Program-made: the position numbers and the translations under genes | Assembly (NCBI GenBank): GCA_904502075.1 | Contig: CAJGDL010000001.1 | Span: 1 to 37,564, forward strand | Direction: 5' to 3' | Length of the DNA: 37,564 bases | Origin: an uncultured Alistipes sp. | GTDB taxonomy: Bacteria > Bacteroidota > Bacteroidia > Bacteroidales > Rikenellaceae | Shown: positions 8,088 to 24,288 of the stretch, in pieces | Layout of the letters: every line of letters starts with the position of its first letter | Numbering within the stretch: position 1 is the stretch's first letter | Notes under the pieces: generated by a model | The model's database searches: none | What the model saw: only the letters and a program-made list of their open reading frames with translations | Told to the model about the DNA's origin: nothing

Positions 8088-8358
8088 CCCCCTCTATTGC
8101 ATGGTAAAGATGGGATACTAAGCGAGGAAATTCCGCGCCGACATGAAATTGGGGCGGATGGGTAGTACTTTCGTACGTCCCATTCACCCCAAGGATTGAA
8201 ATGCGAAATTTTCCCCCTCTATTGCATGGTAAAGATGGGATACTAAGCGAGGATATTCCGCGCCGACATGAAATTGGGGCGGATGGGCTGTACTTTGCGT
8301 ACTGCCCATTCGCCCCAATGATTGAGGTGCGGAATTTACCGCTTAGTATTCCATCTTT
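8088..8358 (+). repeat. Tandem pair of GTAC-apex palindromic elements, copies 2 and 3 (subfamily B, period 125 bp)
   Basis: Units 8088-8212 and 8213-8338. Apices ATGGG-TA-GTAC-TTTC-GTAC-GT-CCCAT and ATGGG-CT-GTAC-TTTGC-GTAC-TG-CCCAT. The copy 3 stem spans 8231-8358 and reaches into the PFOR CDS. Confidence 0.92.
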
Positions 8359-11300
8359 GCGTGGCGCTGGTAAGTATTATAACGCCACTTCGCATTCTCC
8401 TCGGCTGCCTGGAAGAGCTCCTCAGCCTCGGCGGGGAAGGCCTTCTGCAACGAGGTGTAGCGTACCTCCTTCTTGAGGAAGTCCTGGAACTTCGACCAAT
8501 CGGGCTCCTTCGAGTCATAGACGAAGGGGTTCTTGCCGGCGGCCTCCAACTCGGGGTTGTAGTGCCACAAGTGCCAGTAACCACACTCCACGGCCTGCTT
8601 ACCGACAGTCTGCGTGCGGGTCATACCGCCCTTGATACCGTGGTTGATACAGGGTGCGTAGGCGATGATGAGCGAGGGTCCGGGGTAGGCCTCGGCCTCC
8701 TTGAGTACATTGAAGAGCTGCTGCTGCGAGGCACCAATCGAAACCTGAGCCACATAGACGTAGCCATAGGTCATGGCAATAGCACCGATGTCCTTCTTAC
8801 GGATGCGCTTACCGCTCGAGGCGAACTTGGCTACGGCACCCACGGGGGTAGCCTTCGACGACTGACCGCCGGTGTTCGAGTAGACCTCGGTGTCGATGAT
8901 CAGGATATTAACATCCTGACCCGAGGCGAGGACGTGGTCTACACCACCGAAGCCGATGTCGTAGCCCCAGCCGTCACCACCGATGATCCACTGCGACTTC
9001 TTCACGAGCCAATCCTTCATCTCGAGGATCTTCTGGCAAGCATCGCAACCGCAGGCCTCCATCATCGGCACCAGGCGGGCGGTAACCTCGGCCGAAGCCG
9101 ACGACGATCCACGCTTCTCGATCCACTCCTTCATGGTGGCCTTCAGCTCCTCGGAGCACTTGGCGCAGTTGGCGATGGCATCCTCCATGGCGAGCTGGAT
9201 GCGGTCGCGGAGCTTCTCCACACCGACATGCATACCCAAACCGAACTCGGCATTATCCTCGAAGAGCGAGTTGGCCCAAGCAGGACCCTGACCCTTCTCG
9301 TTGGTGCAGTAGGGAGTCGAGGGGGCCGAACCCGAGTAGATCGAGGTGCAACCCGTGGCATTGGCGACCATCATCTTATCGCCGAAGAGCTGGGTAATGG
9401 CCTTGATATAGGGGGTCTCACCGCAACCGGCGCAGGCACCCGAGAACTCGAACAGAGGCTGTGCGAACTGGAGGTTCTTCACCGACTTGGTCTTGTCTAC
9501 GACATTCTTGTAGCCGATCTTCTCCACGCAGTAGTTCCAATGCTCGGCCTCCTTCATCTGGCTCTCCAGGGGCTTCATGACGAGGGCCTTCTCCTTCGAG
9601 GGGCAGACATCCACACAGTTGTTGCAACCCGTACAATCGAGCGGCGAGAGTTGGATGCGGAACTTATACTCCTTGGTCTCACCCAGGCCCTGCTTGAACT
9701 CCAAGCCCGAAGCGGCAGCCTCCTCTTCCGTTGCCAGGAAGGGACGGATAGCGGCGTGGGGGCAGACGTAGGCGCACTGGTTACACTGGATACAGTTCTC
9801 CACCTTCCACTCGGGAACACTCACGGCAATACCGCGCTTCTCCCAGGCGGCGGTACCGTTGTCCCAGGTACCATCCTCACGACCATTGAAAGCCGACACG
9901 GGGAGCTGATCACCCTTCAGGGCGTTGATCGGATCCACGATGTTGCAGACGAACTCGGGGCGCTTCTCATCGGCCGTGCAGGCGCAAGTCTCCTTGAGCT
10001 CGATCTCGGCCCAAGCGGCAGGAACCTCCACCTTCTCGACGGCCGAACCTCCGGCATCCACGGCGGCATAATTCATGTTGACGATATCCTCGCCCTTCTT
10101 GCCGTAGGACTTCAGGATGGCCTTCTTCATCTCCTCGACAGCCTTCTCGAAGGGGATCACCTCGGCGATCTTGAAGAAGGCGGCCTGCATGATGGTGTTG
10201 GTGCGCGAGCCCAAGCCCAACTCGGCAGCGATCTTCGTGGCGTTGATAATGTAGAAGTTGATCTTGTTCTTGGCCAAATAGACCTTCATGTGGTCGGGCA
10301 ACGTGGCGCAGGTCGTGGCGGCATCGTGTACCGAGTTCAAGAGGAACGAACCACCGGCCTTCAGACCCTTCAGCACGTCATACTTATCGACATACGAGGG
10401 GACATGGCAGGCTACGAAGTCGGGCGTAGTTACCAGGTAGGGCGAGGTGATGGGGTTGTCGCCGAAGCGGAGGTGCGACGAGGTGTAGCCACCCGACTTC
10501 TTCGAATCGTAGGAGAAGTAGGCCTGGCAGTACTTGTTGGTCGAACCACCGATGATCTTGATCGAGTTCTTGTTGGCACCCACCGTACCATCGGCACCCA
10601 GACCGAAGAAGAGGGCCTCGAAGGTACCGGGCTTGGCCAGCGAGATCTCCTCGCCTACGGGCAGCGAGAGGAAGGTTACGTCGTCGTTGATACCTACGGT
10701 GAAGTGGTTCTTGGGCTCAGCGGCAGCCAAGTTCTCGAATACGGCCAGCATCTGGGCGGGCGTCGTATCCTTCGACGAGAGGCCGTAGCGACCACCGATC
10801 ACCATCGGCTGGTTCTCCTTGCCATAGAACATATCCTTTACATCGAGGTACAAGGGCTCGCCGTTCGATCCGGGCTCCTTCGTGCGGTCGAGCACGCAGA
10901 CACGCTTCACGGTCGAGGGCAGTACATCGAAGAAATACTTCTCCGAGAAGGGACGATAGAGGTGTACGGTCACCAGACCCACCTTCTTGCCCTGTGCCAC
11001 GAGGTAGTCGATCGTCTCCTTGATGGTCTCGGTTACCGAACCCATCGCTACGATGATCTGCTCGGCATCCTCGGCACCGTAGTAGGTGAAGGGCTTATAG
11101 TCGCGACCCGTGATCTCCGAGATCTGCTTCATGGCCTCGGCCACCATATCGGGCACTGCGTTGTAGAACTTGTTCGAAGCCTCGCGGGTCTGGAAGTAGA
11201 TGTCGGGGTTCTGAGCCGTACCGCGCGTTACCGGGTGCTCGGGGTTGAGGGCCTTCTGACGGAAAGTCTTCAGGGCATCGCGGTCGAGCATTGCGGTCAG

Positions 11301-11873
11301 ACGAGCCTCGTCGATGAGCTCGATCTTCTGAATCTCATGCGAAGTACGGAAACCATCGAAGAAGTGCAGGAAGGGGATGCGGGCCTTCAGGGCTACGATG
11401 TGAGCCACACCGGCCAGATCCATCACCTCCTGTACGGACGAGGTGGCCAACATAGCAAAGCCCGTCTGGCGGGTTGCCATCACATCCTGGTGGTCGCCGA
11501 AGATCGACAACGACTGGGCGGCCAGGGCACGAGCCGAGACATGGAATACACCGGGAAGCAACTCACCGGCGATCTTGTACATATTGGGGATCATCAGCAA
11601 CAGACCCTGCGATGCGGTAAAGGTCGTCGTGAGGGCACCCGACTGCAACGAGCCGTGTACGGCACCGGCGGCTCCGGCCTCCGACTGCATCTCCACCACC
11701 TTGACGGTCTCGCCAAAGATGTTTTTACGTCCGGCAGCGGCCCACTCGTCAACGAGTTCGGCCATGGTGGACGACGGCGTAATAGGATAGATGGCGGCTA
11801 CCTCCGAGAACATGTAGGCCACATGGGCGGCGGCGTAGTTACCATCACAAGTAATGAATTTCTTTTCTGCCAT
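8343..11873 (-). CDS. nifJ: Pyruvate:ferredoxin (flavodoxin) oxidoreductase
   Basis: 1176 aa. Motifs YPITPSS, EMQSEAGAAGAVHG, two 4Fe-4S motifs (CIQCNQCAYVCP, CTGCNNCVDVCP), SGACAGCGE and TPP motif GGDGWGYDIG. Confidence 0.97.
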   Translation of the reverse strand: MAEKKFITCDGNYAAAHVAYMFSEVAAIYPITPSSTMAELVDEWAAAGRKNIFGETVKVVEMQSEAGAAGAVHGSLQSGALTTTFTASQGLLLMIPNMYKIAGELLPGVFHVSARALAAQSLSIFGDHQDVMATRQTGFAMLATSSVQEVMDLAGVAHIVALKARIPFLHFFDGFRTSHEIQKIELIDEARLTAMLDRDALKTFRQKALNPEHPVTRGTAQNPDIYFQTREASNKFYNAVPDMVAEAMKQISEITGRDYKPFTYYGAEDAEQIIVAMGSVTETIKETIDYLVAQGKKVGLVTVHLYRPFSEKYFFDVLPSTVKRVCVLDRTKEPGSNGEPLYLDVKDMFYGKENQPMVIGGRYGLSSKDTTPAQMLAVFENLAAAEPKNHFTVGINDDVTFLSLPVGEEISLAKPGTFEALFFGLGADGTVGANKNSIKIIGGSTNKYCQAYFSYDSKKSGGYTSSHLRFGDNPITSPYLVTTPDFVACHVPSYVDKYDVLKGLKAGGSFLLNSVHDAATTCATLPDHMKVYLAKNKINFYIINATKIAAELGLGSRTNTIMQAAFFKIAEVIPFEKAVEEMKKAILKSYGKKGEDIVNMNYAAVDAGGSAVEKVEVPAAWAEIELKETCACTADEKRPEFVCNIVDPINALKGDQLPVSAFNGREDGTWDNGTAAWEKRGIAVSVPEWKVENCIQCNQCAYVCPHAAIRPFLATEEEAAASGLEFKQGLGETKEYKFRIQLSPLDCTGCNNCVDVCPSKEKALVMKPLESQMKEAEHWNYCVEKIGYKNVVDKTKSVKNLQFAQPLFEFSGACAGCGETPYIKAITQLFGDKMMVANATGCTSIYSGSAPSTPYCTNEKGQGPAWANSLFEDNAEFGLGMHVGVEKLRDRIQLAMEDAIANCAKCSEELKATMKEWIEKRGSSSASAEVTARLVPMMEACGCDACQKILEMKDWLVKKSQWIIGGDGWGYDIGFGGVDHVLASGQDVNILIIDTEVYSNTGGQSSKATPVGAVAKFASSGKRIRKKDIGAIAMTYGYVYVAQVSIGASQQQLFNVLKEAEAYPGPSLIIAYAPCINHGIKGGMTRTQTVGKQAVECGYWHLWHYNPELEAAGKNPFVYDSKEPDWSKFQDFLKKEVRYTSLQKAFPAEAEELFQAAEENAKWRYNTYQRHAKMEY

Positions 11874-11976
11874 TTTTATCAGATTTTAACGTTATTTTCA
11901 ACTCAGTTTTCAACTAACCTATCCGATTTTCGACTCCTTGGTTTCACGAATCCATCCAATGCGCGAAAATCCGGTG

Positions 11977-12058
11977 CAAAGATACAAAAAATTCGCCAAG
12001 GTGATCACCTTTCGAGCCATTGCCAAGATAAAATTTGACAAAAAATCATTTATCTTTG
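11977..12058. promoter_or_regulatory. Divergent -7 boxes for nifJ (minus, 11977-11984) and the M16 peptidase operon (plus, 12051-12058)
   Basis: TATCTTTG occurs on each strand, facing the respective gene. Confidence 0.7.
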
Positions 12059-23991: not shown

Positions 23992-23993
23992 AT

Positions 23994-24116
23994 TGGGAGA
24001 TATGGAAGATATAGGAGATGTAGGATCTCTATATTTCTCAAAATTCCTATACCTCCTATACCTCCTATACCTCCTACAATTCCTATAATTCACACAACTC
24101 CCATAGTTCCTATCTT
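23994..24116. repeat. Degenerate 9-bp tandem repeat arrays in inverted arrangement
   Basis: About 3.5 units like TAGGAGATA (23994-24025), then about 10 units like TCCTATACC (24027-24116), three of them perfect at 24045-24071. Confidence 0.85.
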
Positions 24117-24163
24117 GTTTCCTCAAATGGTGAGCCAAGAATAGAACACCTTCCCCTCAACAG

Positions 24164-24288
24164 GGTTGTTGTCAGAAGGTTGCAGTTGCAACACTCGGCA
24201 AAAAAAACGCGGAAGGGTTGTACTTAAAGTACTACCCTTTCGCGAGTTTTTTGTTAGCGGCCGCAAATGCGACCTGATCACAACAACC
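24164..24288 (+). repeat. GTAC-apex palindromic element, copy 7 (divergent subfamily A), abutting the ROK gene stop codon
   Basis: Ends GGTTGTTGTCAGAAGGTTGCAGTTGC / GCAAATGCGACCTGATCACAACAACC. Apex CGCGGAAGGG-TT-GTAC-TTAAA-GTAC-TA-CCCTTTCGCG. Confidence 0.88.

Follow-up and report, generated by a model that had tools for sequence, protein, structure and literature searches.

The 37,564-nt stretch of contig CAJGDL010000001.1 of an uncultured Alistipes sp. (hereafter the window, meaning this whole stretch) carries an imperfect hairpin of about 125 nt in seven copies, each of which forms one end-to-end rod. Members of this hairpin family dock on core genes, at the stop codon and in a single orientation relative to the gene, their turnover between relatives is polar, and the donors from which they spread are biased in the strand that bears their wobble pairs. 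The docking is real and lies far above chance. We lean modestly towards explaining these features by a non-autonomous hairpin of the ERIC/IRU kind that spreads as an antisense single strand in folded form and is attached to the stop by its 3' end, with an imprecise distal join and with arms edited by template switching.

Form and distribution of the hairpin family

In the genome to which the window belongs (G000; 1.55 Mb, 78% complete; other G-numbers denote related genomes), an iterated hidden Markov model (HMM) gave 95 matches in 64 loci, 21 of which are arrays, and no match in the reversed genome used as a decoy. This census is a lower bound, the first HMM having missed at least C34, C41, C73, C8:19876, C84 and C147. 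The elements are intergenic, multicopy, imperfectly palindromic over about 127 bp and folded end to end, which are the features of ERIC/IRU repeats; by eye their ends are runs of T or A, and they carry no GTAG or CGTC tag.

A covariance model of the hairpin matched 63 of 100 genomes of the genus and left 37 without a match; among 150 other genomes of the order, with 23 candidates per genome scored, none matched. In a scan over 185,579 species, the matches listed (at least 80) all came from Alistipes, Rikenellaceae or one other Bacteroidetes, and the phages and plasmids searched for the hairpin gave no match. Against Rfam, a tRNA was the sole match in the window, and elements in four further loci had no match at the gathering score. 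No description of the family was found in the literature covered, which left out most subscription papers and took in part of the catalogue of PMC8040213, where many Alistipes candidate RNAs are listed.

Docking at stop codons in one orientation

Genes were called with our own hexamer-based caller (1324 genes in G000), and a locus was scorable when a gene lay on the 3' side of the G-T strand of the element, which holds for 58 loci; six run off a contig. In 57 of these 58, the stop lies on that side and the gene is on the opposite strand, against 47% under random intergenic placement. When the apex is additionally required to lie no more than 67 nt from the stop, 53 of 58 loci remain, against 1.4% under random placement. 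By eye, the sole exception in G000 (C2) has the same sense as the other copies; it stands behind an apparent promoter, a non-coding stretch and a terminator. A model-free scan recovered 41 long hairpins in 1188 intervals behind stops and none in 1210 intervals before starts.

The same rule holds in the relatives. It describes 54 of 59 top-scoring loci in eight genomes and, in the complete genome G011, all but one of 15 weaker sites, two of which were oriented by their outer arms where a weak model hit pointed the opposite way. Pattern matches drawn from many assemblies were docked in 85 of 117 cases, versus 5 of 123 on the control side, although some of the short distances in the former count run to an element's own stop in another frame. 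A first-pass annotation of this DNA had suggested that distance and orientation be examined genome-wide and that both strands be folded; placement proved non-random in G000 and its relatives, and the strands do not fold equally well (see below).

Within the window, the apex lies 47 nt from the stop at nifJ, 62 at fabH, 59 at purB, 65 at gap and 62 at the ROK-family kinase gene, in agreement with the copies and distances first reported at these five stops (62 nt for fabH and ROK, 65 for gap). The three copies of subfamily A likewise read, on the mRNA, from the stop to TGTTGTGAT(A/C)AGG, as had been claimed. The hosts had been described as genes of central metabolism, which was wrong: among the 26 of 57 hosts scanned are rplQ, tsf, prfC, ssb, dnaJ, secDF, nqrF, rnfA and recQ, and the functions covered include translation, replication, envelope and energy.

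At the junction, the first distal base pairs with the third base of the stop at 56 of 79 loci (32.8 ± 3.5 after permutation) and at 42 of 52 in a second set (31.1 ± 2.0). The third stop base also follows the dominant element end of each genome: TAA ends 36 of 43 hosts versus 740 of 1214 genes in G000, and TAG stands at 22 of 41 host stops in seven relatives versus 71 of 300 genes sampled in G011. At some sites, the distal arm is an inverted copy of ancestral coding sequence, which covers 13 nt at nifJ, 6 at the ROK gene of G008 and 8 at L203, and is seen also at L208 and C34.

Strand of better folding and the origin of its bias

Of 73 full-length hits, 71 had enough flank for both strands to be compared. 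The strand antisense to the host mRNA folds better in 66 of 71 copies as RNA and in 67 of 71 as DNA, with mean RNA fold energies of -56.6 kcal/mol for the antisense and -47.0 for the mRNA strand. That the antisense strand is the better folder had been proposed for all five docked copies of the window; it holds at nifJ (-86.2 versus -72.0), fabH (-78.3 versus -61.2), gap (-67.6 versus -53.3) and ROK (-64.8 versus -59.6), and is not measurable at purB, whose distal outer arm is lost and whose strands tie (-42.3 versus -42.0). The companion claim, that most non-canonical pairs are G-T on the antisense strand, stands in part: G-T outnumbers A-C in four of the five copies, with purB at 3:4, and A-G pairs are as many or more. 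Over the 71 copies, the counts are 302 A-G, 247 G-T and 133 A-C.

The rod is conserved above its sequence. In an alignment of 122 copies, itself fitted to the model, two-sided changes occur at 28 of 32 pairs, a count that none of 500 shuffles and no slid control reached; 115 of the 122 copies retain one particular G-T pair, and the unpaired columns are purine-rich (66%).

The history of the wobble pairs becomes visible when fixed and private changes are separated. After removal of four rows (three reverse-strand duplicates and one truncated), 84 of 118 copies fell into 13 subfamilies, within which wobbles are fixed 49 times as G-T versus twice as A-C (20 versus 2 distinct column types, p=1e-4). 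Private, non-fixed departures divide evenly, with 28 of each kind, and 49 of the changes within subfamilies are double changes. Because the fixed wobbles are so skewed while the private ones are balanced, the strand appears to be chosen when copies spread and not during residence. Selection would thus act on the antisense fold of donor copies, and settled copies would decay neutrally.

Turnover and polarity of replacement

Host sites change their occupant over short evolutionary distances. At the ROK stop, contigs of near-identical strains in the public runs X1 and X10 join the gene end to a different subfamily, one of them with 27 differences in 1713 nt, and in G008 this stop also carries a subfamily other than the subfamily A of the window. 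Of 28 G008 sites, 27 have an ortholog in G000. On re-reading of these, copies stand at 13 (a script had flagged 10, to which ssb, rplQ and the C159 array were added), remnants at 3 and no trace at 11. Five of the ten flagged sites combine gene ends that are 82-90% alike with elements that are 48-60% alike. The 11 traceless sites and the ROK strain difference together amount to the presence/absence polymorphism by which miniature inverted-repeat transposable elements are recognised.

Replacement is polar. Behind new copies at pgk and several other sites stands the distal arm of an older copy of a different subfamily; each of the 13 half copies of G000 is a distal half; and distal flanks recur at other loci in 16 of 50 cases. 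The stop junction is therefore precise and the distal junction variable, and the flank travels with the element. The position of the junction scatters over several bases before and after the stop, and some insertions in G008 (L207, L208, L186 and L195), a few codons early and just upstream of the native stop, have changed the last residues of murA and three other proteins.

No direct target duplication was found in 14 comparisons of filled and empty sites, the flanks of which have diverged, and TA termini are lacking, distal flanks beginning with TTG, CGG, CCG and similar triplets. Inner-stem remnants lying 34-65 nt behind stops in G000 (C32:4308, C46:6098, C5:6247, C65:4877 and C113:3883) now resemble plain terminators; at two genes whose G000 copy is such a remnant, G008 holds a full copy.

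Replication strand and host expression

With the leading strand taken, as is standard, to be the T-rich strand at fourfold sites, 22 of 31 scorable G000 hosts are on the leading strand versus 94 of 199 comparable genes (p=0.02), as are the hosts at 23 of 25 sites checked in complete G011. Replication strand as the sole determinant was rejected, because both orientations occur within the 37-kb window and lagging-strand hosts keep the gene-relative rule; the leading-strand bias is secondary to orientation relative to the gene. The codon adaptation index (CAI) of hosts is higher (0.71 versus 0.62, p=2.5e-7), and a codon index opposed to the skew gave p=0.85 overall and p=0.07 among leading-like genes. 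Since strand skew confounds the CAI, these figures do not establish that hosts are highly expressed.

Copies and host genes in the window

Behind nifJ (pyruvate:ferredoxin oxidoreductase by NCBIfam; 8343-11873, minus strand), two copies stand in tandem on the plus strand: a stop-proximal one at 8231-8358 (apex 8296) and a more degenerate, distal one at 8117-8219 (apex 8170.5). Positions 8231-8243 repeat the final 13 coding bases (8346-8358) in inverted form, with 12 Watson-Crick pairs and one G-T; because of this mirroring, the stem encloses the stop at 8343-8345.

The remaining docked copies adjoin fabH (14968-15978, minus; NCBIfam), purB (19242-20588, minus; NCBIfam), gap (22827-23843, plus; NCBIfam) and the ROK-family kinase gene (24288-25286, minus; NCBIfam match below the cut-off). 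The fabH copy of subfamily A (14843-14969, plus; apex 14906) is 95% identical to the gap copy; its distal flank (14736-14842, plus), where a truncated arm and a small hairpin accompany an 84-nt duplication, is common to two other loci, C44 and C79. In the purB copy (19124-19245, plus; apex 19183), other sequence stands in place of the distal outer arm. The gap copy, also of subfamily A (23845-23970, minus; apex 23908), lies between the stop and a terminator-like hairpin with a T run (23967-23997, plus), just as first described, and the ROK copy completes the subfamily (24164-24289, plus; apex 24226).

The rpmH copy (5557-5681, minus; apex 5619) had been singled out as an exception in both placement and orientation. 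Its placement is indeed exceptional, behind the rpmH terminator and 114 nt from the stop. Its orientation is the usual one: the model scores the antisense strand (91.8 bits), the outer arms lie as elsewhere, and the apex alone is inverted, its sequence matching the opposite-strand apex of its own subfamily.

Several other repeats accompany the copies. Directly behind the rpmH copy, 5677-5884 holds an inverted pair of short palindromes, with similar text at 14640-14690, which we take to resemble CGTC-type REP elements; REP-like palindrome units also stand behind other copies (C24, and L197 of G008). A T/G-rich motif followed by small hairpins, reminiscent of a small-RNA gene, is common to 19060-19135 and C2:20445 of G000. 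At 19060-19135, where contigs of other organisms pile up, this motif runs, on the antisense strand, into the purB copy, whose distal arm it has replaced. Small hairpins with a CGTTACG apex occur at 14771-14790 and 23967-23987; of 28 intergenic ones genome-wide, 20 adjoin a copy, on its mRNA strand, and they often stand in for the apex of half copies or serve as a terminator. Short tandem runs of 7-9-nt oligomers fill spacers of the window (5719-5761, 5965-5997, 14716-14735, 24050-24080 and 26420-26479), partly arranged as inverted arms, and are plentiful beside G008 copies too. At 2414-2683, a tRNA-Thr is followed by two terminator-like palindromes with flank, 126 nt apart; this period equals that of the hairpin arrays, and the sequence differs.

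Comparison with known repeats

The closest parallel is the enterobacterial ERIC (IRU, RU-1) repeat of 127 bp, which shares the length, the single end-to-end rod, the purine-rich loops on the better-folding strand and the lack of a known mobiliser. On an E. coli chromosome, where 12 of 14 matches were examined, all 12 ERIC copies fold better on the purine-loop strand, and for 3 of them a stop lies 65-70 nt away, its gene being on the weaker strand, which is the Alistipes geometry. The docking is far stricter in Alistipes (57 of 58 versus 3 of 12), and Alistipes also has much greater diversity among its subfamilies, which supplant one another at a single site. In addition, ERICs have TA termini and duplicate their target (PMC2229807), whereas the Alistipes family does neither. 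The Alistipes model R1 gave no hit (E<=10, filters off) on eight loci representing one orthologous ERIC. Because of this missing match and the absent TA ends, the family, which is the stricter of the two, is not a member of ERIC. In simple open reading frame calls, five of the 12 E. coli ERICs (L345, L347, L351, L352 and L354) abut or overlap predicted starts with the better-folding strand as mRNA, an arrangement opposite to that of the Alistipes family.

Pneumococcal BOX elements are likewise modular and often provide the stop codon of a housekeeping gene, at its very 3' end (36 cases; PMC3049150). They differ in being boxA-B-C mosaics with IS-like termini, and the passages of PMC3049150 covered describe neither a strict single orientation nor an antisense-fold bias. 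REP, BIME and REPIN sequences resemble the family as extragenic palindromes downstream of genes that form tandem mosaics and conserve mismatches. REPs, however, are 20-40 bp long and end in GTAG or CGTC (PMC3733652), in contrast to 125 nt and T/A-run ends here, and no Y1_Tnp turned up in the carriers searched.

Arm homogenisation and spacer inversion by template switching on quasi-palindromes (PMC5941160 and PMC8604942, respectively) match the double changes and flipped apices of the Alistipes copies. Such correction edits in place, however, and does not spread an element to new stops; it would also erase conserved mismatches unless donors are selected.

Search for a mobilising enzyme

No enzyme family examined tracks the element. 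The RAYT/IS200 transposase (PF01797) is absent from G000 and from nine element-carrying relatives, and its one occurrence among 24 genomes of the genus is in a non-carrier. RVT_1 (PF00078) is absent from the carriers G000, G008, G010, G012, G013 and G015 and present in G003, G011, G014 and G022, and is thus not common to carriers. The integron integrase TIGR02249 stayed below the cut-off in five of five carriers. With PF00589, XerC/D-sized and other integrases were found, none beside a listed copy and none common to carriers; nor were IS630 (PF13358), IS110 (PF02371) or IS4/5-type (PF01609) transposases common to high-copy carriers. RtcB (PF01139) occurs in 3 of 101 genomes and RelE/ParE (PF05016) in one of five, neither being common to high-copy carriers. 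This search covered few families in mostly incomplete metagenome-assembled genomes (MAGs; 77-93% complete) and is no proof of absence.

Mechanism and alternatives

New copies land at or within a few bases of a stop, in one orientation, where they replace or displace an older copy, and the donor's downstream flank can come along. Under the ERIC-kind reading that we favour, a folded single strand, antisense to the mRNA, would be the form that is copied, and only donors that fold on this strand would spread. Its 3' end would meet the gene end, mostly on genes co-directional with replication, where the antisense strand is the nascent lagging strand; joining by this 3' end would account for precision at the stop junction and looseness at the distal one. 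The paired double changes, the inverted host bases and the flipped apices may then arise when the polymerase switches template from one arm to the other. The mark that picks out the stop may, as a guess, come from host translation or transcription and not from a dedicated transposase. Of the first-pass proposal of oriented, stop-targeted insertion through a strand-specific intermediate, the orientation, the turnover and the G-T bias of donors fit. A bolder form, which we rate as improbable, would dispense with a transposase altogether: the stop would be marked in translation, the antisense single strand joined at the fork, 3' untranslated regions (UTRs) swapped and the stop and last residues at times rewritten, with ERIC following the same route.

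A number of observations weigh against this account. No intermediate, enzyme or insertion event was observed, and since most genomes are incomplete MAGs, a transposase might be missing from the assemblies. Past the third stop base, pairing into the gene is at chance level overall, so that general mirroring of coding bases was rejected as a rule, and long inverted copies are a handful of cases. Per column, G-T versus A-C over all copies is just 20:14, which is not significant; the antisense strand is G-rich, so shuffles of it also fold better; the mRNA strand is likewise a strong rod (z -3 to -12); and the subfamilies are related, so that 49:2 does not represent 51 independent events. The lagging strand bears nine of the 31 scorable hosts in G000. 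A murA copy in G008 has same-junction hits in G010 and G012 and none in G000, a pattern that suggests loss in G000, so gain and loss cannot always be polarised. Finally, each of the five relatives checked has a copy at gap and at nifJ, and this would agree as well with copies being kept for a host function.

Such a function is the core of one rival, in which the rod is a host RNA element at the 3' end of the mRNA: the terminating ribosome would open its base and thereby gate a nuclease, the weaker strand would be placed in the mRNA on purpose, and gene conversion would homogenise the loci. The strong fold of the mRNA strand, the stem ending at the stop, the constant occupancy of gap and nifJ, and RNA-library contigs that run from the ROK gene into the element (unstranded, with DNA not excluded) are all consistent with it. 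There is also precedent in the orientation-dependent, ribosome-linked destabilisation of transcripts by ERIC, with nuclease gating proposed for Yersinia ERICs (PMC2229807). Private changes are strand-neutral, however, and copies decay to remnants; of the 32 genes occupied in more distant genomes, just 5 counted as hosts in G000 (a slight undercount), 37 of 100 genomes of the genus have no match, and conversion alone cannot fill empty sites such as the 1-nt operon gap at L187. We regard this rival as unlikely. The antisense or 3'-end regulatory role suggested at first gained no direct support from the unstranded contigs covered, resident copies decaying symmetrically and the mRNA strand folding strongly too.

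In another rival, an HUH-type single-strand transposase acting on mRNA-sense DNA could recognise conserved A-C and A-A mismatches, of which G-T would be the mirror image, and target the exposed sense strand behind the stop, which for leading-strand genes is the lagging-strand template. The nearly invariant wobble (115 of 122) is what a recognition feature would look like, and in REP stems, RAYT depends on residues that are unpaired (PMC3733652). The column types at which G-T is fixed number 20, however, not one, and PF01797 is missing from G000 and nine carriers. Variable distal junctions and flank carry-over are, moreover, not typical of HUH transposition, and we consider this explanation quite improbable. 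Still more doubtful is retrotransposition of the 3' UTR, in which a cut in the A site at the stop would allow a donor 3' fragment to be joined to the 5' fragment of another gene, and the antisense cDNA to recombine into the chromosome. Here, the stem ends at the third stop base, where ribosome-dependent toxins cut (between the second and third bases of the A-site codon; PMC6821326), the third stop base tracks the dominant element end (TAA in G000, TAG in relatives), and variable downstream flank moves with the element. These points are offset by the distribution of RVT_1 (absent from six carriers), RtcB and PF05016, by junctions that vary around the stop, and by the two exceptions, rpmH and C2, which lie after terminators.

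It is hardly conceivable that the copies are attC-like recombination sites of an integron system, an identity already largely refuted. The likeness lies in a site behind a gene whose antisense strand folds, with structure conserved above sequence; the fold bias and the purine-rich unpaired columns seen here agree with it, as does the geometry of cassettes, where the folded bottom strand is the recombination substrate (PMC8876359). Against it, no integron integrase rose above the cut-off in five carriers, and the hosts are syntenic housekeeping genes, not cassettes. The attC core motifs are RYYYAAC and GTTRRRY, and none of 53 copies has either.

Implications

For the movement of ERIC-type repeats, the idea of a transposase is without experimental support (PMC2229807). 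The Alistipes family constrains the mechanism through its stop junction, its single orientation, strand selection confined to donors, polar replacement within species, leading-strand bias and inverted host bases. The near-complete carriers G011, G047 and G085, set against the non-carriers G004, G023 and G024, permit a profile search for the factor involved. If the host-machinery route is true, it would be a model for the way in which attC sites come to adjoin captured genes at their stop codons. The element rewrites the 3' UTRs, and sometimes the C-termini, of core genes in a genus that is common in the gut.

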